The notes: a model not told the origin generated them from the sequence alone. 64,000 nucleotides of DNA from an uncultured archaeon (GCA_964347265.1 CAYFXV010000001.1:14397-78396), one strand, 5' to 3'; shown: positions 3,544 to 19,470, numbered from the stretch's first letter. Translations and numbers: made by a program.

Positions 3544-4695
3544 ATGCTCTATAAAAACCTTAATTTAAATCTTATTAAAATTCCTAAAGTTAGGGTTGCT
3601 ACTGGTCTTTATTCTCATTGGGACTCTATAGTTAAGATTGATGAAAATATTTTGAACTGGATTAAAAAGGCTTATAAAGAAGAACCAAAAGGTGTTATAC
3701 TTAATTCTTTAGAAGAGACAGTATTTACTATAAAAGAAGCCCTCGAAAATGAAGGTAAAGAATTTTTAATATCTGAAGATGTTTATAATAGATTAGATCA
3801 GTTTTTCTTAAAAAGAGAATTTAGAATTGGTGGTAATGGATATAACATGGGAAACATGTTATTTTTATCAGAAATTATTCCTGTTGTATCTTATCCTATA
3901 AGATCTAAAAAATTAATGGAAAATTCTCCTGAGTTTAAAATTGTTTTAAAGGGTGAATTAAAGAAACCAATAGAAACAATAAGGATAACAGATCAGGATT
4001 ATGATCACATAATTATTGAACTTGAAAATTCTAGACATATTTTGTCATGGGACCCAATGACATCTCGGGGAATTTTTGATTATGAATTTTTAAAATTTGC
4101 TTCTGATCCAAAAAATATAGATATATTGATTCTTGCATATGCCCATTTGTTATTGCCTGATTATAAAAAGAAAACAGATGCAATTATAGATTTCTTAAGT
4201 GAAAAAAGGCCAAGAACTCATCTAGAGTTTGGTCTAGGTTGCGAAGAGTCTATGAAATATGCTATGGAAAAATTCTCAGAAGATAAATGTTGTGAGTCTT
4301 GGGGATTAAATGAAATAGAATGCAAAGTTTACTTAAATGCAACATCTGAAAATAAAAATGATTTAATAGAGTCTGCTCTAAATGCTATTAAAGAATACAA
4401 TATAGATAGAGTCTGTGTTCATACACCTGAATTTGTTTTTTCTATTTCTAAATATGATATAATGAAGGAGTATAGAGCTCTAATAACTGCTTGTCTTTTT
4501 GCTGCAGCAAGAACTTTTGGTGATTTAAAATTAAAAATTGCTAAATCATTGCCAACAACATATGAACCTGTTAAAGAAAAAATAGAAGAATACAATTTTT
4601 GTTTAGTACCATGTTTAATAAATAAATTCCCTAGAGTTTTAACAGGAATTGGTGATGGTTTTGCTGCTATTCAAGCTGTTAAAGCTCTAAGCTGA
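3544..4695 (+). CDS. ADP-dependent sugar kinase (ADP-glucokinase/phosphofructokinase family).
   Basis: 383 aa. All three family motifs are present: RIGGNGYNMGNML (the GG...AN region), NEIE (NxxE), and the C-terminal GIGDGFAA (GXGD catalytic motif). Confidence 0.65.
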   Translation: MLYKNLNLNLIKIPKVRVATGLYSHWDSIVKIDENILNWIKKAYKEEPKGVILNSLEETVFTIKEALENEGKEFLISEDVYNRLDQFFLKREFRIGGNGYNMGNMLFLSEIIPVVSYPIRSKKLMENSPEFKIVLKGELKKPIETIRITDQDYDHIIIELENSRHILSWDPMTSRGIFDYEFLKFASDPKNIDILILAYAHLLLPDYKKKTDAIIDFLSEKRPRTHLEFGLGCEESMKYAMEKFSEDKCCESWGLNEIECKVYLNATSENKNDLIESALNAIKEYNIDRVCVHTPEFVFSISKYDIMKEYRALITACLFAAARTFGDLKLKIAKSLPTTYEPVKEKIEEYNFCLVPCLINKFPRVLTGIGDGFAAIQAVKALS

Positions 4696-4983
4696 TTTAG
4701 CAATTTTCTTAGCCAACCTGTTTAAAGAAGCTCTTAGAATGTCTCCTTTGATGTTTTTCTTCTTTATTCTTTTCATACTAGCAGCAAACTTTGGTCTATC
4801 CATTGTTCCTTTTAACCAAGCCTCAAAATCATTCCTATCATCTCTTAAATGAAACTCTAGGCTTTCTATAGGAACTGTCTTCAGGCATTCTGAAAATTCA
4901 GAAAGATTATGAGCAATCTTTCCTGTAAAGCCTGAAGTAGTACAAAACCAAAAAGCTTTATCATTTGATACATTTTTTCCCAT
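4687..4983 (-). CDS. Hypothetical protein.
   Basis: 98-aa ORF convergent with the kinase gene. Unknown family. Confidence 0.35.
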   Translation of the reverse strand: MGKNVSNDKAFWFCTTSGFTGKIAHNLSEFSECLKTVPIESLEFHLRDDRNDFEAWLKGTMDRPKFAASMKRIKKKNIKGDILRASLNRLAKKIAKSA

Positions 4984-5122
4984 TTTATCACCATTCTATG
5001 GATTTTTTAACATTTTTCATTATATGTTTAAATACAGTTTTTAATTAAAATTTAAATATGTAGTAAACCATATACATTACGTATAAACTATAAAGGATTC
5101 TAATATTTAAAGATGATGTAGA

Positions 5123-6268
5123 ATGAAGGTACTGATGCTTGGTTGGGAATTCCCACCAGCCAAAACTGGAGGCTTAGGTACCCATTGCTATGAACTTGTT
5201 AAAAATTTAAGTAAAAGAGGCGTTAGTGTTCTACTATTAATTCCAAAAAGAACAGGGAATAAAAAACATAATATACCAAATGTAGAAATAATAGAAGTAG
5301 GTTCTGTTGCCTTAAACCCTTATAATACAACAAAACCTGATGATAAATTTGAAAAAGGTTATGGATGGAACTTCTTTGAAGAAGTTAGAGCTTTTAACAA
5401 AAGATGCGTTGAAATAGCAAAAAACAAGAAATTCGATGTTGTTCATTGTCATGATTGGATGACAATAGATGCTGGAATTAAAATTAAAAAAACAACAGGA
5501 AAACCTCTAGTTTTCACTGTTCACTCAACAGAATATGATAGAACAGCTTATATCTATCCTATGAAATTTATAATTGATATTGAGAAAGGGGGGATTCAAA
5601 AAGCAGATTTGGTTATAACAGTTAGCAAAGGTATGAAAAAACAATTAATAGAGAAATATAATGCTGAAGAGAAAAAGATTATAGTAATATATAATGGAAT
5701 AAATCCCTCTAAATATTTTGGATTGATTAAGAAAGGTAATAAAGGAATTGTCCTTTTCTTAGGAAGGCTAACAAATCAAAAAGGACCTTATTTCTTTTTA
5801 CATACAGCAAAAAAGGTTTTAGAAAAAAGGAAAGATATCATGTTCATAGTTGCTGGTCAGGGAGAACAGATGCCAGAACTAATTAGAATTGCAATTGGAT
5901 TAGGTATTATGGATAATGTTGTTTTTACTGGTTATTTAACCGAAGAAGAGCTTTTACAAGCTTATTATATGGCTGATGTTTATGTTATGCCATCAGTAGC
6001 AGAACCATTTGGAATTACAGCATTAGAGGCAATTGCTTCAGGAACTCCTGTTATTGTTTCTAAAAATGCTGGTGTTGCAGAAAAAATATTGCATTGTTTT
6101 AAAGTGGATTTCTGGGACACCCATGAAATGGCTAATAAAATAATATGCTTATTGAAATACCCCGTTCTGGGAGAATGTATGAGAAAAAATTCTTATAAGG
6201 AGATAAGAAACTTTGGATGGGATAGAGTAGCTGAACAAACAATATCAGTTTATAGGAGAGCTATATGA
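5123..6268 (+). CDS. GT-B glycosyltransferase. It is probably a small archaeal (GT5/GT4-type) glycogen synthase.
   Basis: 381 aa. N-terminal MKVLMLGWEFPPAKTGGLGTH resembles the Pyrococcus glycogen synthase N-terminus. The C-terminal E-x7-E region is PSVAEPFGITALEAIASGTPVIV. Confidence 0.6.
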   Translation: MKVLMLGWEFPPAKTGGLGTHCYELVKNLSKRGVSVLLLIPKRTGNKKHNIPNVEIIEVGSVALNPYNTTKPDDKFEKGYGWNFFEEVRAFNKRCVEIAKNKKFDVVHCHDWMTIDAGIKIKKTTGKPLVFTVHSTEYDRTAYIYPMKFIIDIEKGGIQKADLVITVSKGMKKQLIEKYNAEEKKIIVIYNGINPSKYFGLIKKGNKGIVLFLGRLTNQKGPYFFLHTAKKVLEKRKDIMFIVAGQGEQMPELIRIAIGLGIMDNVVFTGYLTEEELLQAYYMADVYVMPSVAEPFGITALEAIASGTPVIVSKNAGVAEKILHCFKVDFWDTHEMANKIICLLKYPVLGECMRKNSYKEIRNFGWDRVAEQTISVYRRAI

Positions 6269-7440
6269 CATCGCTTTGTTTTTATTTTCAGGTTCACCAA
6301 CCAATGAGATTAAATAGATTTTCTATCTTTACTAAAGGTTCTCCTTATTTTGATGAAGAAAGAAACAAAGCGTATTTAAAAAAAGTTTCAAATAAATGTT
6401 ATTTACCAACTAACAAACTTCTTTTAGATCTAATAAATGAATATGAGAAAAAATTCAAAATTGCCTTTAGCTTAACTGGAGTTTTTGTAGAGCAATGTAA
6501 AAAATATGCACCTGAAGTTTTAGAATCTTTTAAAGAATTAACCAAGACTGGAAACGTTGAGTTTTTAAATGAAACTTATTATCATTCTTTAGCAGTCTTA
6601 TTTTCTGAAAAGGAATTTAAAGAACAAATAAAACTTCATAGGAAAATGATATTAGAATTGTTTAACCAAAAACCAAAAATTTTTAGAAATACTGAAGCAA
6701 TGTATTCAAACAGTATTGCCAAACTAATTGAAAAATTAGGATATAGAGGAATAATAACAGAAGGTCATGAAAGTATTCTAGGGTGGAGATCACCTAATTA
6801 CTTGTACTATCCAAATGGTTGTAAAAAAATTTCAGCCTTATTGAGGAACTATAAATTAAGTGATGATATTGGTTTTAGGTTTTCTGCTCGATGGTGGGAA
6901 GAATATCCACTGACTGCTGATAAATATTCGATATGGTTATCAAAATGTGAAGGTCATTGTATTAATGTATTCATTGATTATGAAACATTTGGAGAACATC
7001 AATGGGAAGATACAGGAATATTTAATTTCTTAAAATACTTACCATCTGAAATTTCTAAATATCCAAGTCTTGATTTTAAAACTCCATCTGAAATTATTAA
7101 ATCATATAAACCTGTTGGAGTCATAGATGTTCCACATACAATTTCTTGGGCAGATGTCCAAAGAGATCTTTCAGCCTGGCTTGAGAATGAAATGCAAAAA
7201 CTTGCTTTTGAACAAATGGCAAAACTTGAAGAACATGTTAAGAAAAACCCAGAATTGTTGCATACATGGAGATTACTTCAAACTTCTGATCATTTTTATT
7301 ATATGTGTACTAAGTGGTTTGCTGATGGTGATGTTCACAAATATTTTAATCCTTATAATTCTCCTTATGATGCATTTATTAACTTTATGAACATTTTACA
7401 AGACCTAAGAAGAAAGTTGGGTTTAAATGAAAGTAGATGA
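6265..7440 (+). CDS. GH57-family glycoside hydrolase (alpha-amylase, 4-alpha-glucanotransferase or branching-enzyme-like).
   Basis: 391 aa. N-terminal FYFQVHQPMR matches the GH57 region-I HQP signature. It overlaps the upstream GT gene by 4 nt, which suggests an operon. Confidence 0.5.
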   Translation: MTSLCFYFQVHQPMRLNRFSIFTKGSPYFDEERNKAYLKKVSNKCYLPTNKLLLDLINEYEKKFKIAFSLTGVFVEQCKKYAPEVLESFKELTKTGNVEFLNETYYHSLAVLFSEKEFKEQIKLHRKMILELFNQKPKIFRNTEAMYSNSIAKLIEKLGYRGIITEGHESILGWRSPNYLYYPNGCKKISALLRNYKLSDDIGFRFSARWWEEYPLTADKYSIWLSKCEGHCINVFIDYETFGEHQWEDTGIFNFLKYLPSEISKYPSLDFKTPSEIIKSYKPVGVIDVPHTISWADVQRDLSAWLENEMQKLAFEQMAKLEEHVKKNPELLHTWRLLQTSDHFYYMCTKWFADGDVHKYFNPYNSPYDAFINFMNILQDLRRKLGLNESR

Positions 7441-9373
7441 TCTAAAATGGGAATATCTACCAATAGAAAATCCTGATTGGGATTATGCTAGAAACCTCTT
7501 TACTGTTCTAAAAAGACCTCAAGCAACTTGGTCTCAATCTATTTTTTCTGTAAGACATAAAAACTTAATTGCACCTAACAGAGATTATAAATTTCAAGGA
7601 TTATATGTTTTTGTTAATAAGGAGTATTGGAAATTTTTAGATGCTATATTCTTTGGAATAAAAGAATTTCATATGGAACCTAAAAAAGTAATAATTTTTC
7701 CTTGGAAATCTGTTTATCAATATTTTGGAGATGGAATCGATGTTGATGTTTCTTATTATTTATCTAGAGATATGAGAGAAGGCATAACAGCAAAAATCAT
7801 ATTTGATATAAAGAACTCTTTTTTTAAAGAACTAATAATTAAACCTTTAGTTGATATTAGGAATATTTTTTCAGATTCAAAACCAGAAAAAATTAAAACT
7901 AAAGTTAATAACAACTCTTTGACTGCATCCTTTGGAAAAAATAAAATTTCTTTTTTTGTTAATGATAGTAGTATTTTAGCTGAAAAGGAGATTTTAAATT
8001 GGAAATATAAATTGGGAAGTGGATTTAGAGAAAATACTAGCAATGGTATAAGATTTGTTTCAGAATGGGCTAGGCCTGTATTCATTGGAGAAATTCACAA
8101 AAGATTATCTGGAGATGAAAAGATTTCTTTAATAATAAACTGTAATAGAAAAAATGATGATTTCGATGAAAATGAGGAAAAATTATATGTAAATCAAATA
8201 ACTAAGAAATTTAATTGTAAAAATGAATTGTTAGCAAGAATAATCTCATTGGATAGTTTTGGTATATTAGAAAAAAATATTTTAATACCAGAAGCCGGAG
8301 ATTTCTGGTTTAGACAAATATGGCTAAGGGATTTGTTAGAATCGTTAATTAATAATTTTCAAACTTTCATCAAATTAGATAACAAAAAAATAAATGAAAT
8401 AATAAAATGGATACTAAAACAACAAAATAGAAAAACTGGGAGATTCCCAAATTTCAAAAATAATTATAATTCTGTTGATACAAGTCTTTTATTCTTTATT
8501 TTAGCTGAAAAATACCTAAAACACTTCAATGATAAAACAATGGAAAAAAGAATTTTAGAAAGTTTTAATTTACTTTTTAAAAAATTTTCTGAAAATAAAA
8601 TAGAAAATAATGGGCCACCAGTAATTAAACATTATATGTTATACTCTATGCCATGGCATTCTTGGACAGACTCTAGAATTCCTTTCAGAGGAGATATGAT
8701 ATCTACAAGAATTCCACATGAATGGGTTAAAGAAGAGAATTTAGAAGAAATACTCAAACCATGTTTGTTACCTGAAATAAATGCAATGTTTATTAGAACT
8801 TTAAAAGTGGTGGAACTGTTAGGAAAAGATCTTGGAAATTTTTATAAAAAATCTTTAGAAAAATATAAAAAAATATTTCAAAATAATGATTTTCTATATT
8901 CTATAATTATTAACGATAAAAAAGATGCTACAGAAACTTCAATGGCATTGAATTCTGCTGTTTTGTTATATAATCATGTTTTTAATAAAAAAGATTTGGA
9001 AAAAATGTGGCCATCTGTTCAGAAATTATTAGTTAAAAGAAGTGGAAAATTGTTTGGTATTCTTTGTAGAAATATAAAAGATAGAATATATTACAACGAT
9101 TACCAATATCATGGAGCAGTTGTTTGGCCAAGAGACACTCCTTATCTCATTAGATACCTGAAAACAATTGGAAAAAATGATTTAGTAAAAGAAATTCTGG
9201 AAAGTAATTTAGAACATCAGATGAATGAATCTGGAATATTTTATTGTAATGAGTTATTTTCACTTCCTGAAGGAAAGAATCCATCCCCAACTAAAAGTGA
9301 TGGTAATCCTGTCCCAGTTAAGAACCCTATCCAATTATGGTCACATTTTTGTGATGATTATTTAAGAAGCTAA
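7427..9373 (+). CDS. Amylo-alpha-1,6-glucosidase / glycogen-debranching-enzyme-like six-hairpin glycosidase (GDE_C or GH15-like).
   Basis: 648 aa. It contains FWFRQIWLRDLLESL (a W.RD-type motif), and its size and operon context with glycogen enzymes fit. Confidence 0.45.
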   Translation: MKVDDLKWEYLPIENPDWDYARNLFTVLKRPQATWSQSIFSVRHKNLIAPNRDYKFQGLYVFVNKEYWKFLDAIFFGIKEFHMEPKKVIIFPWKSVYQYFGDGIDVDVSYYLSRDMREGITAKIIFDIKNSFFKELIIKPLVDIRNIFSDSKPEKIKTKVNNNSLTASFGKNKISFFVNDSSILAEKEILNWKYKLGSGFRENTSNGIRFVSEWARPVFIGEIHKRLSGDEKISLIINCNRKNDDFDENEEKLYVNQITKKFNCKNELLARIISLDSFGILEKNILIPEAGDFWFRQIWLRDLLESLINNFQTFIKLDNKKINEIIKWILKQQNRKTGRFPNFKNNYNSVDTSLLFFILAEKYLKHFNDKTMEKRILESFNLLFKKFSENKIENNGPPVIKHYMLYSMPWHSWTDSRIPFRGDMISTRIPHEWVKEENLEEILKPCLLPEINAMFIRTLKVVELLGKDLGNFYKKSLEKYKKIFQNNDFLYSIIINDKKDATETSMALNSAVLLYNHVFNKKDLEKMWPSVQKLLVKRSGKLFGILCRNIKDRIYYNDYQYHGAVVWPRDTPYLIRYLKTIGKNDLVKEILESNLEHQMNESGIFYCNELFSLPEGKNPSPTKSDGNPVPVKNPIQLWSHFCDDYLRS

Positions 9374-9398
9374 CTAATTAATGATATGAGGTATTGTT

Positions 9399-11189
9399 AT
9401 GAAAACCCAAGCAAATGTTTTGTTTGAAGTAGCTTTTGAGGTATGCAACAAAGTTGGAGGAATATATGCTGTTATAGAGTCAAAAGCTGCCCGAATGGTT
9501 GAATTATATAAAAATAATTACTTTGCTGTAGGACCTTATTATCCTGAAAGAGCTATTCTAGAAACCATAAAACAAAAACCTCCAAAATTTTGTGAAAAGG
9601 TTTTTTCTAGCTTAAATAAAAACGGAATTAAGTGTCATTATGGAAAGTGGATTGTAGAAGGAAAACCAAATGTCATACTAGTTGAATTTAATGATCTATT
9701 AGAAAAAGTTAATAATATAAAAACAGAATTATGGAAAAAATATAAAGTTGATTCTTGGGGAACTAAGTTTGATTTTGAAGAACCTGTTGCTTGGTCAACA
9801 GCTGCTGGAATGCTAATAGAAAAACTTTTTCCATGTTTTGAAAATAAAAATGTTGTTGCTCATTTTCATGAATGGTTATCAGGAGCAGCTTTATTATATC
9901 TAAAAGATAAAGTCCCTACTGTTTTTACCACACATGCAACAATGTTAGGAAGAACAATAGCTGGATGGGGAGAAGATTTGTATAAAGAGGTTAATGATGC
10001 AATTTATACTAATACTCCTTTAGATCCAAAAAGACCTCACAAATATGGAGTTCAAGCAAAACACCAAATGGAAAAAGCTTGCGCTGAAAATTGTACTATT
10101 TTTTCAACAACATCTGAAATAACATCCAAAGAAGCAATCTACATACTAGGAAAAATACCTGATATAATATTACCAAATGGTTTAGATATAGAAAGATTTC
10201 CTACAATGGAAGAGTTTGCTTTATTACACAGAAAATACAGAGAAAAAATCAAGCATTTTCTAAGTGCCTATTTTAATCCTTATTATGAAACAGATTTGTG
10301 GGATGCAATGGTTTTTTTCACATCTGGAAGATATGAATTCAGAAATAAAGGATATGATGTTCTAATAGAAGCTTTAGGAAAATTGAATGAAAGAATGAAA
10401 AAAGAAAAAATTAAAAAAAATATTTTTGTTTTCTTCTATGTTCCTAGAGGCGATATTAAAGATAATATTGAAATCATGGAAAGTACTCAATTATATGATG
10501 ATATGAGAGAAACCGTAGACGATGAATTGCCTTGGATAGAAGAAATGATTTTGGATTCGCTTGCAAAAGGCAAAATGCCAAAAATGAGAGTTATACTTAA
10601 AAAAGAGTTTTTAGAGGAATGTAAAAGAAAAATAGCTGCCTTTAAAAGAAAAGGCAATCCTCCTTTTTCTGCATATATTGTTGATGAAGATGATTTAATT
10701 GTAAATGCTTTTAAGGAAAACAGGCTCTTGAATAGAATTGATGATAAAGTTAAAGTAATATTTTATCCTTCTTATTTATCAACAACAGACAGATTATTAG
10801 GATTAAACTATGAACAAGCTGTTCAAGGTTCTCATTTAGGCGTGTTTCCTTCATATTATGAGCCTTGGGGATATACCCCCCTTGAGTGTGCTGCAAATGG
10901 TGTTTTGTCTATAACTTCTGATTTTGCTGGCTTTGGAATATTTATTAAACAGAATTCTGATCAAAGTAAAAACCCTGGAATAGGGGTTTTAGAAAGAGAT
11001 AGCAAAAGTCGTGAAGAAGTTATTGAAAAATTATATGAAATGTTATGGAACATTGTTATTATGTCTAGAAAAGAAAGAATACCTAAGAAAGCTCAAGCAA
11101 AAGACTTAGCTTCACTAGCTGATTGGAAAATATTAATTAAAAATTATGTTCAAGCACATAACATGGCTTTAGAAAGATTTAAGAAATAA
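9399..11189 (+). CDS. Glycogen synthase, GT3 (eukaryote-type) family.
   Basis: 596 aa. N-terminal LFEVAFEVCNKVGGIYAVIESKA closely matches the fungal/animal glycogen synthase N-terminus (LFE.A.EV.N.VGGIY.V..SKA). HFHEWLSGAALLYLK matches the HFHEW block. Confidence 0.7.
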   Translation: MKTQANVLFEVAFEVCNKVGGIYAVIESKAARMVELYKNNYFAVGPYYPERAILETIKQKPPKFCEKVFSSLNKNGIKCHYGKWIVEGKPNVILVEFNDLLEKVNNIKTELWKKYKVDSWGTKFDFEEPVAWSTAAGMLIEKLFPCFENKNVVAHFHEWLSGAALLYLKDKVPTVFTTHATMLGRTIAGWGEDLYKEVNDAIYTNTPLDPKRPHKYGVQAKHQMEKACAENCTIFSTTSEITSKEAIYILGKIPDIILPNGLDIERFPTMEEFALLHRKYREKIKHFLSAYFNPYYETDLWDAMVFFTSGRYEFRNKGYDVLIEALGKLNERMKKEKIKKNIFVFFYVPRGDIKDNIEIMESTQLYDDMRETVDDELPWIEEMILDSLAKGKMPKMRVILKKEFLEECKRKIAAFKRKGNPPFSAYIVDEDDLIVNAFKENRLLNRIDDKVKVIFYPSYLSTTDRLLGLNYEQAVQGSHLGVFPSYYEPWGYTPLECAANGVLSITSDFAGFGIFIKQNSDQSKNPGIGVLERDSKSREEVIEKLYEMLWNIVIMSRKERIPKKAQAKDLASLADWKILIKNYVQAHNMALERFKK

Positions 11190-11195: not shown

Positions 11196-11591
11196 TCAAG
11201 CTCTCATATCAGGAAGTTCCGGTAATCGAACACTTAAAGATCTAGTAGGTATTCTATTCATTATCATTCTGTTTAGGTTTTTAATAGTTATTATTTCTTT
11301 TAATCTCCTACTGGTTTTAAATGGAACAGCATGATATACTCTTCTAGGTTTTTCATTATCCAGATGTCCTTTTTTTGAACTAACATAACCTTTTTCTTCT
11401 AAAGTGTGTAATAATGGATAAATTTCAGAGGGACTAAAAAGAACTCCATACTTTTCTCTAAAATCGGTAAGAAGCTTATAACCATGAGTGGGTTCTTTCA
11501 ATATATTTCTTAAAAATATTTCTTCCATATTGGCCTTCAAATCTTTTCTAACTAATTGTTTTATTGTTTCCATTCTCGATATTGTTTCCAT
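11196..11591 (-). CDS. PadR-family transcriptional regulator.
   Basis: 131 aa. THGYKLLTDF...YPLLHTLEEKGYV is a PadR wHTH signature. Confidence 0.65.
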   Translation of the reverse strand: METISRMETIKQLVRKDLKANMEEIFLRNILKEPTHGYKLLTDFREKYGVLFSPSEIYPLLHTLEEKGYVSSKKGHLDNEKPRRVYHAVPFKTSRRLKEIITIKNLNRMIMNRIPTRSLSVRLPELPDMRA

Positions 11592-11679: not shown

Positions 11680-12114
11680 TTAGTATTTTTTCAAATGTCC
11701 ATGAATATACTTCTCAAATATTGTAAGAAATACTAATTTATCTCTTCCAGTATTAATAACTCTATGATACTTGTTAGGGAGAACTGTAACCAAATCTCCT
11801 TTTTTAACATTAATCTTCTTCTTATCAACAATTATATATCCTCTACCTTTCAAAAAAATATAAACTTCTTCAGCATTGTGTTTGTGTCCCCTAGTCATTT
11901 TAAATTCAGAATTGACTTTTCCAGGATATAGAAAATTCATACAAACCATAAGTCTTTTCAAACCAGTTTTTTTAACAGGCAAGTCAATTAAAACTTCGTT
12001 AATATCGTTTTTATGACCTTTAATGTTTTTGTAGATATTTTTACCTTTTTCGATCGCGTCTTTAACTTTCATTTTTAATGTCTTACCTTTGAACTTATTG
12101 ATGTTAAATTTCAT
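11680..12114 (-). CDS. Cupin-domain protein, probably a cupin-type glucose-6-phosphate isomerase (cPGI).
   Basis: 144 aa. MTRGHKHNAEEVYIFLKG matches the cPGI signature T.GH.H....E.Y. It sits beside the TIM and FBPA/P genes. Confidence 0.5.
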   Translation of the reverse strand: MKFNINKFKGKTLKMKVKDAIEKGKNIYKNIKGHKNDINEVLIDLPVKKTGLKRLMVCMNFLYPGKVNSEFKMTRGHKHNAEEVYIFLKGRGYIIVDKKKINVKKGDLVTVLPNKYHRVINTGRDKLVFLTIFEKYIHGHLKKY

Positions 12115-12779
12115 TTCATCCCCATTATTAATTCTTCCATAGCTTTTTCAACATTTCCTGCTTTGACTACACCAGAAGCTAATATAACTCCTTTTGTTCC
12201 AAGTTCAATTGCTTTTTTAACATCTTCTCTTGTTTTAATCCCTGCTCCGCAAAGAACATAGGTTCTTGGTGAAATTTTCTTAACATCATTAACAGATTTT
12301 TTTATTATTTCTGGTTTAGCAGTTGAAACAGAAACATCACCTCCAATTAATTCTGGAGGTTCAATTGCAATAAAATCTGGTTTAAATTCTGCTATTTTTT
12401 TTACTTCATTATTATCTTTAGCACAAACAATCGACACTAATTCATATTCTTCACATAAGTCAACACATTTCTTAATATCTTCATGCGGAATCCTTCTTTC
12501 AGAATGATTTATTATAGAACCGACTCCGCCTAATTCCTTTACTTCTTTAGGAAGCAAAGCTCCTGTATGTGCACCTGGTTCATAAGGATCTAGATGTTGA
12601 GAAATAGTTGAAGTAATTTTGGCAACTTCATTTAACAAAGGAGTAGGCGGTGCAATTAAAATAGTTACATTATATTTATTAGACAACTCTTTAGCAACTT
12701 CTGCAAACTTTATAGGCTTTTCTCCAAGAACTTGTTCATACTCTTTCAAATTTATTATTAATATAGGAAGTTTCATCAT
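12111..12779 (-). CDS. tpiA: Triosephosphate isomerase (archaeal short type).
   Basis: 222 aa. It has the INHSERR motif, the GAGIKT phosphate-binding region and typical archaeal TIM length. Confidence 0.85.
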   Translation of the reverse strand: MMKLPILIINLKEYEQVLGEKPIKFAEVAKELSNKYNVTILIAPPTPLLNEVAKITSTISQHLDPYEPGAHTGALLPKEVKELGGVGSIINHSERRIPHEDIKKCVDLCEEYELVSIVCAKDNNEVKKIAEFKPDFIAIEPPELIGGDVSVSTAKPEIIKKSVNDVKKISPRTYVLCGAGIKTREDVKKAIELGTKGVILASGVVKAGNVEKAMEELIMGMK

Positions 12780-13870
12780 ATATCCTGGAATCTATTTTTT
12801 AGTTTTTCCTTTACTGCAGGTAAGGTTGTGTATTCCATTTCATCTGCACCTAACCTATGTGGTTCGAATGGTCCTTGTCTTCTTAGAATATCTGCAATTT
12901 TTAATGCTTCTTGTCTAGCTTTGTCAAATGATTTATCCTTAAGCATGTCCCTTGATGTACCTAACATTCCATTGGCTAATTGAAAACCCAATGCCATAAC
13001 TCTTGGCGGTCCATCAAATCTTGAGGGCGTAGCATCTTCAACAGCCACAGGCATTAAAGGACCGTGATGACTTCCTCTCATCCAACCAGCAACAATCCAT
13101 GGATGTGCAAATCCTTCTAAAACTTCTCCAACTGCTGGCAAACCATGTTGCGCTCTTACAAACATAACTGGATCATCTTTTCCAACATATTTTCCTGCAA
13201 TTAAACTTAATCTACTTGTAGATGTGGAAACTGCATACAATTTGTCTGAAGTTCTGTAAACATGTTTTATAACATATCTTCCAGGTTGTCCAATTAATGC
13301 TAACAAATCATAAATCTCTTCAGGACATTTTAATTCAACTTTTTTATTTTCTATAACATCATGAACCTCGAATGTAAATCCTCCATGCATATGAGGATCA
13401 ATAACTAGACCTGCTGTTGAGAATGGGTCTGCAAACATTTTGTATAATGGAATATTCCATGCTCCTGGCTCTGTTTTATCTGCCATAAAAATAATAACTG
13501 GTTCTGATTTTCTTTCTTCGAATTCCAGTTCTGCAACACCTGGTCCCATTCCTTTTAGATTCCCTGAGAAAGTATCTTTTAATAAATCTTGACCAGCTCC
13601 ATAAAGTTTTAGTTCTTTAGCTTTTTCTGTGCATTTTTTAAAAGTATTCCAAGCCATAGCATGCACATCTTTATTATCAACACCATGTTGATGAGTCATT
13701 ATTAGTTGTAAATCATCTCCACATCCTGTAACATAAAAATCTATTAAAAAACCTTTGTTTTTCTCGTCTTGAAGAATGTTTCTTGCCATTTCAAGAATTT
13801 CTGGATGACTTGAAGAATGTCCAACGTATCCTCCTATGTCAGCTTTGATAACACTTAGCGTAATTTTCAT
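12776..13870 (-). CDS. fbp: Bifunctional fructose-1,6-bisphosphate aldolase/phosphatase (FBPase class V).
   Basis: 364 aa. N-terminal MKITLSVIKADIGGYVGHSSSHPE...DDLQLIMTHQHG is highly characteristic of archaeal FBPA/P. A TATA-like TTTATATTA lies about 25-35 nt upstream on the minus strand. Confidence 0.9.
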   Translation of the reverse strand: MKITLSVIKADIGGYVGHSSSHPEILEMARNILQDEKNKGFLIDFYVTGCGDDLQLIMTHQHGVDNKDVHAMAWNTFKKCTEKAKELKLYGAGQDLLKDTFSGNLKGMGPGVAELEFEERKSEPVIIFMADKTEPGAWNIPLYKMFADPFSTAGLVIDPHMHGGFTFEVHDVIENKKVELKCPEEIYDLLALIGQPGRYVIKHVYRTSDKLYAVSTSTSRLSLIAGKYVGKDDPVMFVRAQHGLPAVGEVLEGFAHPWIVAGWMRGSHHGPLMPVAVEDATPSRFDGPPRVMALGFQLANGMLGTSRDMLKDKSFDKARQEALKIADILRRQGPFEPHRLGADEMEYTTLPAVKEKLKNRFQDI

Positions 13871-13913
13871 ACATTACAAATTGTAGAGGTTTAATATAAA
13901 GATTTCACAAAAA

Positions 13914-13940
13914 TGTGCGGAGGGCAGGATTTGAACCTGC
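13914..13940 (-). repeat. 27-nt tRNA 3'-end fragment (T-arm plus 3' acceptor strand), copy 1 of a direct repeat.
   Basis: The minus strand reads GCAGGTTCAAATCCTGC-CCTCCGC-A, a canonical T stem-loop plus 3' acceptor strand. No complementary 5' acceptor (GCGGAGG) lies upstream, so this is not an intact tRNA. Confidence 0.6.
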
Positions 13941-13992: not shown

Positions 13993-14454
13993 TCATTTTT
14001 TATTAATTAATACTTCCAATTCTCTTAAAGATAAACCGTCTTCTCTATAATGGGGAAAACCTTTTTCTTCTGCAAATTTCATAGCTTCGAATAATTCTCT
14101 ACCAAATCCTCTTAAAACAGTTGTTAAATCAGTATCTCTTTCATCGTTTATTCTATATCTTTTTGAAGCCCAATGCAAAAATTTATCTTTTATTCTACCA
14201 AAAGATGAAGTTTTTACATCTTTTACAATATGAGAAAGTTCTGAAGCTAAAACACCTTTTTTAACCGATTCGCTTGCAGATTTTACTGTTTCATCAACCT
14301 CTAGAAAAAATCCTTCTGGATCTAATTCTCCATATTCTGCTAAAGCATCACCTAATTTCTTATATTCTATTTGTATATCACAATCTAATAAATCTATGTA
14401 TCCTTTTATTATTACTGTGTCTAAAAGTCGTCTTAGTTTTCCCATAATTTTCAA
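13993..14454 (-). CDS. Hypothetical protein flanked by the tRNA 3'-end repeats.
   Basis: 153-aa ORF with no recognisable motif. It lies exactly between the two 27-nt repeat copies. Confidence 0.4.
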   Translation of the reverse strand: MKIMGKLRRLLDTVIIKGYIDLLDCDIQIEYKKLGDALAEYGELDPEGFFLEVDETVKSASESVKKGVLASELSHIVKDVKTSSFGRIKDKFLHWASKRYRINDERDTDLTTVLRGFGRELFEAMKFAEEKGFPHYREDGLSLRELEVLINKK

Positions 14455-14514: not shown

Positions 14515-14541
14515 TGTGCGGAGGGCAGGATTTGAACCTGC
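14515..14541 (-). repeat. 27-nt tRNA 3'-end fragment, copy 2 of the direct repeat.
   Basis: Identical 27-mer TGTGCGGAGGGCAGGATTTGAACCTGC on the + strand. As with copy 1, no 5' half is adjacent. Confidence 0.6.
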
Positions 14542-14601
14542 GAACCCATTACTAGAGCAATACAAATATATTAAAGTACAAAGTATTCTTATTAGAGAAA
14601 A

Positions 14602-16071
14602 ATGTTTGATTCAATAAAATTTGTTAAGGACAATAAAACTGTTTACAAAATTCTAATTAATGGAAGATGGAAAGAATCTTCTAATAAAAAAACTTTTGGA
14701 ATAAAAAACCCAGCCGACGGATCATTAATAGCAGAAGTTCAGAAAGCTACTAAAAAAGACGCTGAAAATGCTGTTAAAGCTGCCTTTAATGCAAAATCAA
14801 AAATAGCAAACATGGATGCTTCTGAAAGAGGAGACATTTTAGATAAAATGGGAAATTTATTAGAACAACACAAAGAAGAATTCATAGACATTATTTGTAA
14901 GGAGTCTGGAAAAACAAGAAAACTAGCTCAAGGAGAACTTCATGCTTCAATAGGAAGACTACATTATGCATCTGATGAAGCAAAAGAAATAAGAGGAGAA
15001 CTAATAAAAGGAGATATTGCAGGTAAAAGAAATTCAATGGGAATTGTTATTAGACAACCTTTAGGAGTTTTATTAGCTATAACACCATTTAATTATCCTT
15101 TGTTTACAGGAATTGCAAAAATAGCTCCTGGAATAGCAATTGGAAACTCAATTGTGGTTAAACCTGCAAGCGCTGATCCTATATGCTTGTTAATGTTTGC
15201 AAAAATTATGCAAGAAGCAGGAATACCAGATGGTGTAGTAAATATAGTTACAGGTTCAAGTTCAGAAATAGGAGATTATTTGTGTTCTCATCCTAAGATT
15301 GATATGATTTCATTTACAGGAAGCAGTGCAGTTGGAAAACATATAACATCTATTGCTGGAATGAAAAAATTACATTTAGAATTAGGAGGAAAAGCACCAG
15401 CAATTGTTTTAGAAGATTGTAACTTTGATATAGCTGTTAAAGAAGTTGCAATTGGTTCTTTAAAGTTCTCAGGCCAAAGATGCGATTCAATAAGTAGGGT
15501 GTTAGTTGTAGAACCAATAGCTGATAAATTTGTTAATGCCATGTTAGAAGAAATTAAAAAATGGAAACTTGGAAACCCTAGAGATCCTGAGACTGTTGTT
15601 GGGCCTTTAATAAATGAAGCTGCTGCCAAAAAAGTTGAGGAATTAGTTAATGATGCTGTTAAAAAGGGTGCAAAACTTTTATATGGTGGGAAAAAATATG
15701 ATCGTGGATATTTTGAACCAACAGTTCTAGATTTTGTTAATAGAGATATGAGAATTGCTTGGGAAGAAACATTTGGACCTGTGGTTACGATTATAAGAGT
15801 TAAAGATTATGAAGAAGCAATTAAACTTGCAAATGAATCTGAATATGGATTAGATGCTTGTATATTTACAAAAGATATTGATAAAGCATTTGATGCTGCG
15901 CAAAGAATTGAAGCTGGTTCTGTTCATATAAATGCTCATCCAACTCATGGTTTAGGAGTGTTCCCATTTGGTGGAGATGAAAGCTCTGGAGTAGGAAGAG
16001 AAGGAATTAAATATAGCATAGAAGATATGTCAAAAGTTCATGTTATGGTTTTGCATTCTCACAAAGAATGA
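14602..16071 (+). CDS. Aldehyde dehydrogenase family protein, probably a non-phosphorylating glyceraldehyde-3-phosphate dehydrogenase (GAPN).
   Basis: 489 aa with ALDH motifs ELGGKAP and FSGQRCDS (catalytic Cys). The GAPN assignment rests on the glycolytic neighbourhood. The internal minus ORF 15288..15629 is spurious. Confidence 0.7.
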   Translation: MFDSIKFVKDNKTVYKILINGRWKESSNKKTFGIKNPADGSLIAEVQKATKKDAENAVKAAFNAKSKIANMDASERGDILDKMGNLLEQHKEEFIDIICKESGKTRKLAQGELHASIGRLHYASDEAKEIRGELIKGDIAGKRNSMGIVIRQPLGVLLAITPFNYPLFTGIAKIAPGIAIGNSIVVKPASADPICLLMFAKIMQEAGIPDGVVNIVTGSSSEIGDYLCSHPKIDMISFTGSSAVGKHITSIAGMKKLHLELGGKAPAIVLEDCNFDIAVKEVAIGSLKFSGQRCDSISRVLVVEPIADKFVNAMLEEIKKWKLGNPRDPETVVGPLINEAAAKKVEELVNDAVKKGAKLLYGGKKYDRGYFEPTVLDFVNRDMRIAWEETFGPVVTIIRVKDYEEAIKLANESEYGLDACIFTKDIDKAFDAAQRIEAGSVHINAHPTHGLGVFPFGGDESSGVGREGIKYSIEDMSKVHVMVLHSHKE

Positions 16072-17124
16072 TTATTTCATTTTAAAATTTAATATTTCAT
16101 CTGGAGTTAATGCTTTGTTATAAATTCTAAATGAATCTATTATTCCATTAAAAGCCTCTCCAGCACTTGAAGGTATAGCACCTATACCAAAATCATTTGT
16201 CATATCCATTACATAATTATATGAACCGGTTTCAACAGACTTTCCATTTCTGTATATTATCCAATTTCCTGTTATGGTTTCGTATGTCATAACAAAATGT
16301 GTCCAAATATCATAACCCCAACCACTCGACCATACAGACATAGCTGACCAAGTTGTTCCATCACCTAAATAACAATACATAGTTGTGGAACCAGAAAAGA
16401 AATAACATGTACTAAAATATCTAGAAAGGAAAGGTCGTTGCATACTACCTTTTTCTCTCATATTAAACCAGAATTCTATTGTAAAACCATCTGGAAAATT
16501 CCCAAATTTATTTATTGCTACATAATCATCTATTCCATCAAATTCTAAAGCCTTACCAAATTTACCATTAACCCATTTGGGACATTCAGAAGTAGGGGGG
16601 TCTGAACAAATAGTAGTATAATCATATAATGTTCCATCATTTTCATATCCAGATTTATCATGTGCAATTGTTCCTCTACCTTCATCAAAATCTAAAGCTA
16701 AAAGAGCAGAATTATGTAAAAGAGATTCTACTCTCTGAACAATTTGTAAACTTGGATTAGATATTTTTAAGTCATAATCTCCTATACTTATTCCTAATAT
16801 ATCAACTGTTATAGTTCCTATTTCTCCTTTTCTTATAGTTTCAGGTGTCATGTTAAATTCAAGAGGTTCATCATCCAAGAAAACATTTAAACTGTCATTA
16901 ACTATTACTCCGCTTCCACAATTTTTTATATAAATATTATTTTTATGGATTGAATCTACTATCATACAAGTAGAGAGAATCTCTCTTGTTCTTGTTGTTC
17001 TTTCAGTTCCAGATTCTGTTAATTCTTTTACTGTCCCAAAAGTAAATAACCAAAAAAGGGTTGTTAGGAATATTAAAATTAACAAGACTAATAGTAATGT
17101 TACAATCGCTGAAAGACCACGCAT
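16072..17124 (-). CDS. Type IV pilin-like protein with a LamG/concanavalin-like lectin domain.
   Basis: 350 aa. N-terminal MRG/LSAIVTLLLVLLILIFL resembles an archaeal class III (prepilin) signal peptide. The C-terminal region (DGIDDYVAINKFGNFPDGFTIEFWFN...) is LamG-like. Confidence 0.5.
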   Translation of the reverse strand: MRGLSAIVTLLLVLLILIFLTTLFWLFTFGTVKELTESGTERTTRTREILSTCMIVDSIHKNNIYIKNCGSGVIVNDSLNVFLDDEPLEFNMTPETIRKGEIGTITVDILGISIGDYDLKISNPSLQIVQRVESLLHNSALLALDFDEGRGTIAHDKSGYENDGTLYDYTTICSDPPTSECPKWVNGKFGKALEFDGIDDYVAINKFGNFPDGFTIEFWFNMREKGSMQRPFLSRYFSTCYFFSGSTTMYCYLGDGTTWSAMSVWSSGWGYDIWTHFVMTYETITGNWIIYRNGKSVETGSYNYVMDMTNDFGIGAIPSSAGEAFNGIIDSFRIYNKALTPDEILNFKMK

Positions 17125-17155
17125 AATTATAATTTAAAACAAGGTAATTATATTT

Positions 17156-18466
17156 ATGAGTATTTTTAGGGCTTATGATATTCGTGGAATTTATGGAAAA
17201 GATTTAACAGAAAAAGTCATGAAAAATATAGGAAAGGCTTTAGGAACTTTTCTTGGTGGTAACAAAAATGTTTGTGTTGGGTATGACACTAGAAAGTCAT
17301 CTAAAAAATTATTTGAAGCATTTTCTTCAGGATTAACTTCTACAGGTTGTAATGTTATATCTCTGGGATTAGTAGCAAACCCTATGCTATATTTTTATGC
17401 TTGGAAAAACAAAATTTTTGGAGCCTTAATAACTGCAAGCCATAATCCAAAAAATTGGAATGGTTTAAAAATGGTGAGACCAAATGGAGTCAGTTTCATA
17501 GAAGAGATTAAATTAATAGAGAATACATATGATTCCAAAAAATTTATTAAAGGTAGGGGAAGGATAACTAAAGCAGATGTATTTAAAAATTATAAAAAAT
17601 TTTTAGAAAGTAAGTTTGGGGTTATTAGAAAAAAAGTTGTCGTTGAGTGTTTTGGAGCAGCTGCTGTTACTGCTCTGCCAATTCTAAGAAGTTTAGGACT
17701 TGATGTAATAAGTCTTCATGACAAACCTGATGGAAATTTCTTTGGGTTTACGAGACCTGAACCAAAAGGAGAAAATCTAAATATGCTTAAAAAAGCTGTT
17801 AAAAGAGAAAAAGCTGATTTTGGAGTTGCATTTGATGGAGATGGTGACAGATCTGTTTTTGTTGATAACAGAGGTAGAGAACCTAATGTAAGCTCAGTAA
17901 TAGCAACTTTTGTTGATTATATATTAAAGAAAAAGAGGGGGTCTATTCTTTTAACAGCTGATTGTGCAAGCGAAATTGAAGATATTGCCAAAGAGTTGAG
18001 AGGAAAAACTATTTGGTGGAGAGTTGGACATGGATTTATAGAAGAAAAAAGTGCAAAAGAAAAAGTTTTATTTGCTGGAGAACAAAGTTCTCATCTTTAT
18101 TTCAATGAATTTTATCCATTCTCTGATGGCATACTTGCAACTATTTATTTAGCTAAAATACTTTCAGAAAGTAAAAAAACACTATCGGAATTACTTGACG
18201 AAATAAAAATACATCCAATAAAAAAATTATATATTAATGTTGGAAGCGATGAAAACAAAATAAGAATTATAGAAAGTTTAAAGAAAAGATATCCTAATGC
18301 TCTAGATATAATGGATGGCATTAAAATGAAATTAGATGATGTAGAATGGGTTCTAATAAGAGCAAGTCAAACAAATCCAGAAATAAATTTATGCGTGGAA
18401 GCAAGGAATGAAAACAGGATGAAAAACATTATTAGAGAATACATTAAATTAGTTAAACAAATTTAA
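17156..18466 (+). CDS. Phosphoglucomutase/phosphomannomutase (alpha-D-phosphohexomutase).
   Basis: 436 aa. It has the active-site loop TASHNPKNWNGLK (TASHNP), the metal-binding FDGDGDR, and overall domain order. Confidence 0.85.
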   Translation: MSIFRAYDIRGIYGKDLTEKVMKNIGKALGTFLGGNKNVCVGYDTRKSSKKLFEAFSSGLTSTGCNVISLGLVANPMLYFYAWKNKIFGALITASHNPKNWNGLKMVRPNGVSFIEEIKLIENTYDSKKFIKGRGRITKADVFKNYKKFLESKFGVIRKKVVVECFGAAAVTALPILRSLGLDVISLHDKPDGNFFGFTRPEPKGENLNMLKKAVKREKADFGVAFDGDGDRSVFVDNRGREPNVSSVIATFVDYILKKKRGSILLTADCASEIEDIAKELRGKTIWWRVGHGFIEEKSAKEKVLFAGEQSSHLYFNEFYPFSDGILATIYLAKILSESKKTLSELLDEIKIHPIKKLYINVGSDENKIRIIESLKKRYPNALDIMDGIKMKLDDVEWVLIRASQTNPEINLCVEARNENRMKNIIREYIKLVKQI

Positions 18467-19470
18467 TATTGTCTTGCAATATCAGAAAGCCTTTCTGGAA
18501 TTATATGAGGTACTGTTTCTCCTGAAAACTCTAAATATCCTTCCCAAGATTTAGTTCCTTGATTCAAAGGAGCTCTTGAAAATATTCTAAATTGATTACA
18601 AAAATTATCTCTAGGGGCTGCACTAAGATTTACAATATTTAATTGTTCAGAAACTCTATCAATTTTAATTCTTATTGCCTTGTCTAAGAATTTTGCAACA
18701 GCACTAATTTCTTTATCATTCATTTTTTGAAAACTAGAATTTTCTAAGGTCATTACAACAAATTCCGTTTTTCCAAAAACAGGAGACCATTCAACAAAAA
18801 ATACAACCTTGCTTTCTTCATCAAAATCTATAACCAATTCTTCTTTAATTAAAGCCTTAACCCAAGATTTCCAATACTTTTTACTTCCTAATTTCATAGT
18901 CAGGGCAGTTTTAGCTAAGGGTTTGTCTTCACAATGGAATTGAGCATGAAAATGTTCTAAAGAAGATGCTGCCTTAGAACCGCAATTAACATGCATAGAA
19001 ACATATTTTTTCTTTGAAAGTTTTCCTATTTTCTTTACAAGCTTAATACTATCTACCCAATTATTCAATAACAAATCTCTCGGATCTACTATGTGTCTTT
19101 TATAATTATGAACTACTACACCATGTATTTTCGCAAAAGGAAATAAATTTGAAAAAACAAGAGAATCATTTAAGATATATTGTTTTTTCAATCCAGTTTC
19201 TTTTGAAAACTTAGCACATTTTTTAGGATCACAAAAAAAGCATCTTAATGAAGGTGTTTTGAAACCGAGAGTAGTAGTTTCTATTTTTCTAGCTTCTCTT
19301 TCAGGAGCTATTCTAGATCTAGAATAAAAAGCAGGGTTGTTTCTTATTTTAGTTTCACATGCTTTAGATTGACCTTCTGGCTCTACAACAAAAACCCTAA
19401 TTGTTTTTTCGAGTTTTTTTAAGTCTGTTTTTCTAACCCCTTTTAGGTACTTTTCTAAAGCTTTTAGCAT
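18463..19470 (-). CDS. GalT-family (HIT-like) nucleotidyltransferase, either a galactose-1-phosphate uridylyltransferase or an NDP-glucose phosphorylase-like enzyme.
   Basis: 335 aa. It has an N-terminal zinc motif CFFCDPKKC and an H-x-H-x-Q motif in LEHFHAQFH, matching GalT's HPHGQ. It is adjacent to the phosphohexomutase. Confidence 0.5.
   Translation of the reverse strand: MLKALEKYLKGVRKTDLKKLEKTIRVFVVEPEGQSKACETKIRNNPAFYSRSRIAPEREARKIETTTLGFKTPSLRCFFCDPKKCAKFSKETGLKKQYILNDSLVFSNLFPFAKIHGVVVHNYKRHIVDPRDLLLNNWVDSIKLVKKIGKLSKKKYVSMHVNCGSKAASSLEHFHAQFHCEDKPLAKTALTMKLGSKKYWKSWVKALIKEELVIDFDEESKVVFFVEWSPVFGKTEFVVMTLENSSFQKMNDKEISAVAKFLDKAIRIKIDRVSEQLNIVNLSAAPRDNFCNQFRIFSRAPLNQGTKSWEGYLEFSGETVPHIIPERLSDIARQY

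Follow-up and report, generated by a model that had tools for sequence, protein, structure and literature searches.

What lies between positions 3,544 and 19,470 of CAYFXV010000001.1:14397-78396, a 64,000-nucleotide stretch from the genome of an uncultured archaeon (GCA_964347265.1)? We call this whole 64-kb stretch the window and count all positions from its first nucleotide. It is AT-rich, with a GC fraction of 0.27–0.37 per 2 kb. Identical protein sequences are encoded on contigs of assemblies GCA_012974985.1 and GCA_011772535.1, and the nearest species-level relatives in GTDB, with FBPase identities of 96% and 89%, are named Candidatus Aenigmatarchaeota archaeon. Archaeal markers surround the region: aEF-1beta, ribosomal protein aS21, CDP-archaeol synthase, an S-layer protein, and a thermosome. 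An initial annotation, made from the sequence alone, had proposed a reduced, DPANN-like host, and this was borne out, as the same or nearly the same contigs belong to Candidatus Aenigmatarchaeota metagenome-assembled genomes (MAGs) and the flanking markers are archaeal.

The same annotation had named 12 gene families in this interval, and all of them are there. Most of the calls are backed by profile hidden Markov models; the GDE-like call comes through transitive homology and the GalT-like call through the predicted fold. Three open reading frames (ORFs) had been overlooked: a DUF5752 gene, a nonconserved ORF of 153 amino acids (aa), and a gene for a LamG pilin-like protein. The region thus reads as follows (bit scores are given with the cut-off, where there is one, after "against"):

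3544-4695, plus strand: ADP-dependent sugar kinase (ADP_PFK_GK), 383 aa (Pfam PF04587, 52 bits against 27; predicted fold)
4687-4983, minus strand: small DUF5752 protein (PF19027, 32.3 bits against 23, C-terminal half of the model)
5123-6268, plus strand: GT4/GT5 alpha-glucan glycosyltransferase (Glyco_transf_5, PF08323, 90.6 bits against 22.7; Glycos_transf_1, 108.6 bits; KTGGL motif)
6265-7440, plus strand: GH57 alpha-glucan-active enzyme, 391 aa (PF03065, 285.5 bits)
7427-9373, plus strand: GDE_C-like glycoside hydrolase (transitive homology to PF06202 proteins)
9399-11189, plus strand: GT3 (eukaryote-type) glycogen synthase (PF05693, 481.4 bits)
11196-11591, minus strand: PadR-family regulator (PF03551, 48 bits)
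11680-12114, minus strand: protein like cupin-type phosphoglucose isomerase (PGI), 144 aa (PF06560, 40.7 bits against 20.7)
12111-12779, minus strand: archaeal-type triose-phosphate isomerase (TIM) (NCBIfam NF003302, 267.7 bits against 132)
12776-13870, minus strand: fructose 1,6-bisphosphate (FBP) aldolase/phosphatase (FBPA/P) (NCBIfam equivalog NF041126, 595.1 bits against 520)
13993-14454, minus strand: nonconserved 153-aa ORF with no family match (ORF call)
14602-16071, plus strand: GAPN-like aldehyde dehydrogenase (ALDH) (PF00171, 536.6 bits)
16072-17124, minus strand: pilin-like protein with a LamG/ConA-like lectin domain (LamG domain; N-terminus MRGLSAIVTLLLVLLILIFL)
17156-18466, plus strand: phosphohexomutase of the PGM/PMM/GlmM family (PGM_PMM domains I–III)
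18463-19470, minus strand: GalT-fold (double-HIT) enzyme (predicted structure and motifs)

Judged from gene spacing and strand, the kinase gene would be transcribed alone, and the DUF5752 gene, convergent with it and divergent from the GT4/5 gene, would be a second unit on the opposite strand. A third unit would run from GT4/5 through GH57 and GDE to GT3. The gene overlaps that the initial annotation had pointed to are real (4 nt between GT4/5 and GH57, 14 nt between GH57 and GDE) and mark these three genes as operonic, and GT3 follows after a gap of 25 nt. The fourth unit would be FBPA/P–TIM–cupin, joined by two 4-nt overlaps, with PadR 88 nt further downstream. ALDH and the mutase would be the fifth and sixth, and the GalT-like gene, convergent with the mutase gene and overlapping it by 4 nt, the seventh. 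The region is thus a neighborhood of at least six transcription units on both strands, and neither a single operon nor a mobile island.

How well is this arrangement conserved? We compared gene order, as read from ORF listings, among relatives at loci L001/L089, L002, L003, L085, L086, L090, and L091. In L085, L086, and L090 the order is aS21, aEF-1beta, kinase, DUF5752, GT4/5, GH57, GDE, GT3, a variable slot, cupin, TIM, FBPA/P, and ALDH; DUF5752 has the same position in L085, L086, L089, and L090. The kinase is 70% identical in L085, 58% in L086, 57% in L090, and 51% in L091. In this last locus the same families are rearranged, GT3 is missing, and there are extra GT4/5 genes. Its flanks are unchanged, with aS21 and aEF-1beta on one side and a tRNA-binding protein, CarS, and PHP on the other. 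The base composition is also that of the surroundings: the 15 ORFs of the region do not differ significantly from the 50 other ORFs of the window in GC (P = 0.25), GC at third codon positions (GC3; P = 0.98), or codon-usage distance (P = 0.11, Mann–Whitney), so that the comparison with the flanks called for by the initial annotation, as we ran it, found no departure from the rest of the window. Native composition and conserved flanks together indicate that the cluster is ancient, native, and vertically inherited. We consider it probable that this is a native carbohydrate-reserve neighborhood, passed on vertically, of a Candidatus Aenigmatarchaeota (DPANN) genome.

The four-gene operon combines two glycosyltransferases with two hydrolases. 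The GT4/5 protein begins with MKVLMLGWEFPPAKTGGLG and contains KTGGL, a motif that typifies starch and glycogen synthases. Its scores lie under all NCBIfam GlgA cut-offs (best, TIGR02149 glgA_Coryne, 154 bits against 302; TIGR02095, 104 against 328), and it appears to be as GT4-like as it is GT5-like. A GlgM-like role (maltose-1-phosphate synthase) was considered for it and is not favored, with a TIGR02149 score half of the cut-off and no GlgE nearby. In the GH57 protein, the PF03065 match covers the whole domain, and the motifs HQP, GNVEFL, NTE, and IDYETFGEH are recognizable by inspection, the catalytic residues being assigned by motif and not by structure; phmmer found no match to it among solved GH57 structures.

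Direct matches of the GDE-like protein are weak (17.3 bits against a Pfam cut-off of 21; E = 0.0017 to the structure 7vma), and a five-sequence profile matched solved structures only marginally, with YHGAVVWPRD aligned to YHRGSVWPHD of 7vma. The family call is supported because PF06202 is found in its full-length homologs (33–39% identity, E = 1e-107 to 1e-84), which go by the name of amylo-alpha-1,6-glucosidase; by this transitive homology the protein is a putative GDE_C-like glycoside hydrolase of the (alpha/alpha)6 type. Such homologs occur in Methanocellales, Methanosarcinales, and ANME-1, and one from Methanocellales is encoded directly upstream of a sugar-1-phosphate nucleotidyltransferase gene. 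By eye, neither the GH57 nor the GDE-like protein has an N-terminal signal sequence. The last gene of the operon encodes the GT3 synthase, whose residues 10–593 match positions 1–585 of the 639 of PF05693. Synthases of this family have been reported in DPANN, where their activity and priming are uncharacterized (PMC11046441).

Upstream of the operon, 38–52 nt before the GT4/5 start, stands a palindrome, TATACATTACGTATA (TATAC-N5-GTATA; 5071-5085), which probably coincides in part with the TATA region. Conservation extends to three of the four relatives compared; L085 and L002 keep the palindrome, and L086 has a degraded form. The window contains no second copy and no excess of one-mismatch matches (5 found, 2.8 expected). 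The palindrome may serve as an operator of the glycogen operon and of no other unit. An operator common to the units, comparable to the Thermococcales glycolytic motif (TGM), was considered and dropped: the palindrome is absent at the other promoters of the region, and a search of the window for TGM-like operators gave nothing significant.

The opposing operon begins with FBPA/P, whose product matches NF041126 over positions 1–356 of 356 and PF01950 at 614 bits. Established biochemistry treats FBP aldolase/phosphatases as running only in the gluconeogenic direction. TIM follows (Pfam TIM, 126.9 bits), overlapped by 4 nt by the last gene, that of the cupin. The PF06560 match of the cupin spans only profile positions 53–144 of 182, and Cupin_2 scores 48.4 bits. 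Its best solved relatives are cupin PGIs (cPGIs; E = 2.5e-11), with the TxGHxH...ExY core aligned and H77, H79, E83, and H117 falling on the cPGI metal site (H, H, E, H), as they do on those of Pyrococcus furiosus and T. litoralis. Only 3 residues separate HxH from E, compared with the 6–11 reported for the cPGI signature. The protein ends 10 residues past the last barrel strand, and the cPGI "P..GHDY" segment, presumably part of substrate-phosphate binding, is replaced by "EK(Y/H)xxxH". The FBPA/P–TIM–cupin triplet is intact in every relative examined (L085, L086, L089, L090, and L091). PGI function of the cupin draws its best support from this position as the last gene of a conserved, overlapping operon, and we lean toward the view that the cupin does work as a PGI.

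The kinase is a short and divergent member of its family. The PF04587 match (E = 6.2e-14) spans profile positions 2–425 of 430, and the protein lies far under the NCBIfam ADP-glucokinase (ADP-GK) equivalog cut-off (NF010642, 66.6 bits against 387). Characterized enzymes have about 450–470 aa, compared with 383 here, and all 131 relatives found in a database search have 354–400 aa. These come from Aenigmatarchaeota and from Thermoproteota-type MAGs (Nitrososphaerales, Bathyarchaeota, and "Methylarchaceae"). A profile of 23 sequences matches solved structures of ADP-GK and ADP-dependent phosphofructokinase (ADP-PFK) at E = 4.6e-15 to 8.6e-9. The AlphaFold2 (AF2) model has a pLDDT of 92.1, and its best Foldseek match is 4b8r (E = 2.2e-24, TMq 0.82); all 22 top matches are ADP-dependent kinases, glucokinases first. 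TMt is lower (0.68) because 70–90 residues are missing relative to the solved enzymes.

Is the short kinase likely to be active, and on what? Invariant in 23 family members are N255-E-x-E259 (NExE), T367-G-x-G-D371 (TGxGD), and R164, which align with the corresponding motifs of 1ua4, 1gc5, and 5k27. Also invariant are E73 and H155, aligned with the glucose-site residues E88 and H176 of P. furiosus ADP-GK. At the positions of K158 and N160 in Pyrococcus horikoshii PFK, N160 being the equivalent of H176, the family has Tyr and His. These residues suggest an active ADP-dependent sugar kinase able to take glucose. The same kinase clade extends beyond DPANN at 46–53% identity, with a 9-aa insertion that is absent from the Aenigmatarchaeota members. 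On a JGI contig (3300002532) with Thermoproteota-like gene content (L087, 8908-11167), the short kinase adjoins myo-inositol-1-phosphate synthase, a consumer of glucose 6-phosphate (G6P), and lies near an aldehyde:ferredoxin oxidoreductase and a Fae/HPS fusion. This context hints at G6P supply in another setting and at an old exchange of the kinase between DPANN and TACK archaea.

The six solved structures most similar to the ALDH are all GAPNs (379.5 bits); Thermoproteus tenax GAPN scores 335 and Methanocaldococcus jannaschii lactaldehyde dehydrogenase 323. The Arg before the catalytic Cys is kept ("GQRC"). In L003, L086, and L090 the gene is oriented divergently to FBPA/P, and in L091 it comes immediately downstream of the kinase gene; a triose-phosphate substrate is favored because of this conserved place beside FBPA/P and, in L091, beside the kinase. 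Domains I–III of the phosphohexomutase score 117.7, 76.6, and 71.6 bits, and its best NCBIfam models are Arch_GlmM (333 bits against 439) and PMM/PGM (278 against 618). In L002, the 96%-identical relative (3592-5769 and 8447-9889), the place of the mutase holds a 725-aa, very divergent PGM-like ORF, and the intergenic slot between FBPA/P and ALDH holds an ORF of 480 aa that matches GH53 faintly. Gene turnover is thus concentrated in hot spots, the intervals that separate the conserved genes. In our window, the gap between ALDH and the mutase holds the LamG gene, which is present in L002 and absent from L003. The N-terminus of its product resembles a class III (pilin-type) signal, and the protein is probably a surface or adhesion protein outside the pathway.

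The GalT-like protein has no Pfam match above cut-off, including the GalT models (HIT reaches 18.7 bits against 21.5), and its profile matches PDB sequences weakly. The AF2 model (pLDDT 84, pTM 0.87) is best matched in Foldseek by the Arabidopsis ADP-glucose phosphorylase At5g18200 (E = 3.6e-12, TM 0.63/0.68), followed by uridylyltransferases and the GalT enzymes of Escherichia coli and human. Invariant in the family are R43 and N45 (RxNP), C77 and C80 (CxxC), which we expect to correspond to a zinc site, and H173-x-H175-x-Q177 (HxHxQ). With At5g18200 and class I GalT (HIT superfamily, branch III) it shares the double-HIT fold and the HxHxQ nucleophile motif; it differs from them in having only 12–17% identity in structural alignment, no Pfam GalT match, and a narrow taxonomic range. 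All lineage-named sequences among its 113 homologs are Aenigmatarchaeota or Aenigmarchaeota, except one "Micrarchaeota" and one "Nealsonbacteria" MAG, and the family thus appears restricted to Aenigmatarchaeota. Going by the predicted structure, the protein is best described as a GalT-fold nucleotidyltransferase or a nucleoside-diphosphate (NDP)-sugar phosphorylase-like enzyme rather than a demonstrated GalT.

What would these genes do together? From the families, folds, order, and conservation that we observed, we infer the substrates, the directions, and the identity of the polymer as follows. During synthesis, the FBPA/P–TIM–cupin operon would take triose phosphates to fructose 6-phosphate and on to G6P, the last step if the cupin is a PGI, and the phosphohexomutase would lead to glucose 1-phosphate (G1P). 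NDP-glucose would come from the GalT/ADP-glucose-phosphorylase-like enzyme, from a pyrophosphorylase encoded elsewhere, or from both, and the GT4/5(KTGGL)–GH57–GDE_C-like–GT3 operon would build and remodel an intracellular alpha-glucan. During remobilization, the cytoplasmic GH57 and GDE-like hydrolases would free glucose or oligosaccharides, the short ADP-dependent kinase would rephosphorylate the glucose, and the GAPN-like dehydrogenase would be an irreversible catabolic exit from glyceraldehyde 3-phosphate to 3-phosphoglycerate (3-PGA). As the initial annotation had it, the genes make up a set for gluconeogenesis and glycogen turnover.

That annotation had gone further and seen here essentially an ADP-dependent Embden–Meyerhof–Parnas (EMP) pathway of the Thermococcales type. 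This part is overstated: there is one ADP-kinase, the gluconeogenic FBPA/P is the sole FBP enzyme, the annotated window has no lower glycolysis, and the cupin is without the C-terminal part of canonical cPGIs. In the annotated part of the 64-kb window, to which all our pathway negatives apply, we found no class I (glycolytic) aldolase, second ADP-kinase, GAPOR, GAPDH/PGK, enolase, PK, or PPS. The modified EMP pathway of Thermococcales is alike in having a member of the ADP-kinase family, a relative of cupin-type PGI, GAPN, and FBPA/P for gluconeogenesis. It is unlike in having ADP-GK and ADP-PFK as two enzymes, a class I aldolase, GAPOR, and a full lower glycolysis; the annotated window here shows none of these.

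Methanococcales offer another comparison. In M. jannaschii, MJ1604–MJ1611 presumably form a cluster of kinase, PGI, glycogen synthase, glucoamylase, and GH57 amylase genes. Methanococcales, like the organism proposed here, store glycogen without growing on sugars, and their single ADP-kinase, a bifunctional PFK/GK, is tied to glycogen use (PMC4902934; PMC13267639). Unlike theirs, the kinase here is about 70–90 aa shorter, and it is only remotely related, with 17–21% identity in structural alignment; there is a GT3 besides the GT4/5, and the PGI candidate is a cupin. Within DPANN, Candidatus Nanohalobium constans and Nanopusillus acidilobi share the reduced genome, FBPA/P, glycogen synthase, debranching enzyme, and amylase, and Nanopusillus also has GAPN. 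The hydrolases of Nanohalobium are extracellular and feed its host, whereas those here have no visible signal peptides. A further difference from these two is that this neighborhood unites, in one conserved arrangement, a short ADP-kinase with a clade-specific GalT-like enzyme and a truncated relative of cupin PGI.

Where might the carbon come from? Relatives have genes for form III RuBisCO and for an IF-2B-family (ribose-1,5-bisphosphate isomerase-like) protein 8–10 kb upstream of the kinase, and the source organism has the IF-2B-family gene at a distance of about 10 kb upstream, just beyond the window (L085, 1-2636; L086, 611-3264; L089, 1-70). Carbon may therefore enter as 3-PGA derived from nucleosides, which would link nucleoside salvage to the gluconeogenic genes.

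Several findings weigh against the proposed carbon flow. The GH57 enzyme could be an amylase, a glucanotransferase, or a branching enzyme, and no recognized branching enzyme was identified. The cupin has 144 aa compared with 190–197 aa in its relatives of canonical length and about 189 aa in the cPGIs of P. furiosus and T. litoralis, and it lacks the "P..GHDY" segment and the C-terminal hairpin and strands. An exhaustive HMMER search places it in a small clade of 139–159-aa proteins, which are about equally similar to proteins of cPGI length (190–197 aa) and to generic 110-aa cupins. The ALDH is under both relevant NCBIfam cut-offs (lactaldehyde dehydrogenase, 496.7 bits against 650; archaeal GAPN NF040869, 479.9 against 780), and the Arg of "KTQRG" in Streptococcus mutans GAPN is replaced by His, so at least one phosphate-binding Arg of the bacterial enzyme is lost. 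The mutase, scoring best as archaeal GlmM, may act in amino-sugar metabolism, and a bifunctional kinase is conceivable, as in glycogen-storing methanogens with their single ADP-PFK/GK (PMC13267639).

This last point leads to the strongest of the other explanations, which is unlikely but has several observations on its side. The genes could belong to a complete, reversible modified EMP pathway in the manner of Thermococcales or Methanococcales, with a bifunctional kinase and with glycogen fermented via FBP to pyruvate for ATP. Glycogen-storing methanogens do use a single bifunctional ADP-PFK/GK (PMC4902934; PMC13267639); the kinase adjoins the glycogen genes here and in L091 immediately precedes the GAPN-like ALDH gene, which has the same orientation; and its Foldseek matches to bifunctional and PFK structures are only slightly weaker than those to glucokinases. 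The annotated part of the window, however, offers neither a glycolytic FBP aldolase nor GAPOR, PGK, enolase, PK, or PPS, and FBPA/P is by established biochemistry not glycolytic in direction. Tyr and His also occupy the positions of P. horikoshii PFK K158 and N160 in the kinase family, and PFK is absent from all but one of 23 Aenigmarchaeota MAGs, with the KEGG ADP-PFK/GK ortholog in one (PMC8407114).

A different, rather doubtful possibility keeps the glycogen theme and reduces it to a pared-down cycle, in which GT4/5 would initiate chains and GT3 elongate them, the GalT-like enzyme, instead of or beside a pyrophosphorylase, would interconvert G1P and NDP-glucose, and the kinase would return glucose to G6P. 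If true, the cycle would be tied to ADP and inorganic phosphate rather than ATP and would answer how an archaeal GT3 is primed without glycogenin. By our own reasoning, phosphorolysis of ADP-glucose is favored thermodynamically, which argues against a purely synthetic role of the GalT-like enzyme. Moreover, of three published Aenigmarchaeota MAGs with both GYS and galT, two also contain glgC (PMC8407114).

It is improbable that the glycosyltransferases and hydrolases serve mainly surface glycosylation or compatible solutes instead of glycogen. For Nanopusillus, gluconeogenesis has been proposed to supply glycosylation with activated sugars (PMC4935971); here, GlmM is the best-scoring model for the mutase, the GT4 family is very broad, and a pilin-like LamG surface protein is interspersed among the genes. 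Nevertheless, the GT3 protein matches Glycogen_syn at 481 bits, the GT4/5 protein has both KTGGL and a Glyco_transf_5 domain, its operon partners GH57 and GDE_C are alpha-glucan families, and neither hydrolase has an N-terminal signal sequence by inspection.

Nor is the embedded PadR at all likely to be a dedicated coordinator of the whole gene set, as the initial annotation had thought possible. Its gene sits between those of GT3 and the cupin, 88 nt downstream of the latter, and L002, the closest relative, keeps it. However, only L001/L089 and L002 have it there; unrelated ORFs occupy the slot in L003, L086, L090, and L085, the one in L085 encoding a VIT1-like protein, and in L091 a PadR gene is found about 8 kb away, beside inositol-phosphate synthase. 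Because unrelated genes fill the slot in relatives, PadR is not a conserved regulator of this gene set; in this position it is lineage-specific, confined to the closest relatives, L001 and L002. Nor was a motif common to the promoters of the region found, the palindrome standing only before GT4/5, with no enrichment of one-mismatch matches.

The initial annotation's other suggestion, that the set was acquired as a block, is highly improbable if taken as horizontal transfer of the whole 16 kb, for which a Thermococcales-like lineage would be one conceivable donor. In favor of it, the genes are tightly clustered, a tRNA-Arg gene lies at one edge (19521-19596), a published analysis infers horizontal transfer of individual Aenigmarchaeota genes for GDE and GalT (PMC8407114, supplement), and the kinase clade is shared with Thermoproteota at 46–53% identity. 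Against it, GC, GC3, and codon usage are like those of the 50 other genes of the window, no integrase or transposase was found by profile annotation, the sole att-like repeat brackets one 153-aa ORF inside the region, the same housekeeping flanks recur in relatives down to 51% kinase identity, and the nearest outgroups differ from gene to gene. These outgroups are Thermoproteota for the kinase, Diapherotrites and methanogens for GDE, and many bacteria and Thermofilaceae for FBPA/P, with none for the GalT-like gene. Because they differ by gene, any horizontal transfers would be old and piecemeal.

How much of a native, vertically inherited carbohydrate reserve is new for DPANN? The theme of gluconeogenesis with glycogen storage is already established in the group, having been called a DPANN hallmark (PMC7443923); Nanopusillus has and expresses FBPA/P, GAPN, and enzymes of glycogen metabolism (PMC4935971), and modified-EMP genes have been noted in DPANN from vents (PMC8091004). 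The novelty is modest and lies in three divergent parts: the mini ADP-kinase, the truncated cupin-PGI-like protein, and the Aenigmatarchaeota-restricted GalT/ADP-glucose-phosphorylase-like enzyme. They give a clearer view of carbon handling in one DPANN phylum. A survey of Aenigmarchaeota described the MAGs as lacking PFK and glucokinase, its table listing K00918 in one MAG, FBPA/P in three, and GYS together with galT in three (PMC8407114). In contrast, we find the kinase conserved and widespread in the clade beside glycogen genes, yet too divergent for strict orthology calls. Annotation pipelines with strict cut-offs overlook or mislabel the kinase, the cupin, and the GalT-fold enzyme alike. 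If the activities are confirmed, pathway reconstructions will need revision, both in Aenigmatarchaeota and in those Thermoproteota that have a kinase of this clade. GT4/5 and GT3, a conserved pair, are in addition a test bed for the priming of archaeal GT3 glycogen synthases.

Other features of the window are of separate interest. A perfect 27-nt direct repeat (13914-13940 and 14515-14541, 601 bp apart) brackets the 153-aa ORF at 13993-14454, which is absent from relatives. On the minus strand the repeat reads GCAGGTTCAAATCCTGCCCTCCGCACA, a tRNA T-arm and 3' acceptor strand; there is no whole tRNA at either copy, and no matching 5' half anywhere in the window. Two other assemblies of this organism break exactly at the repeat copies, JABAOH010002075.1 at 13940 and WVZI01000016.1, which starts at 14515. 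The repeat may be an att-like scar left by an element that entered the 3' end of a tRNA; alternatively, the two copies may be 3' halves of split tRNAs.

Further along, positions 39546-47086 hold six minus-strand ORFs in a row (322, 319, 420, 310, 774, and 261 aa) with virtually no Pfam matches, one of them with a weak match to intein splicing. A 114-nt Rfam tRNA match at 52156-52269 on the minus strand (59.9 bits), for which ARAGORN made no report, probably marks a tRNA gene with an intron. The last part of the window (55398-64000) is taken up by a locus resembling those of type IV pili or archaella. Besides a T2SSE-family ATPase (58212-60029), it encodes two membrane proteins of the T2SSF family and several small proteins of pilin-like or CARDB type, and it includes a large ORF that exceeds 577 aa and is open at the window end.

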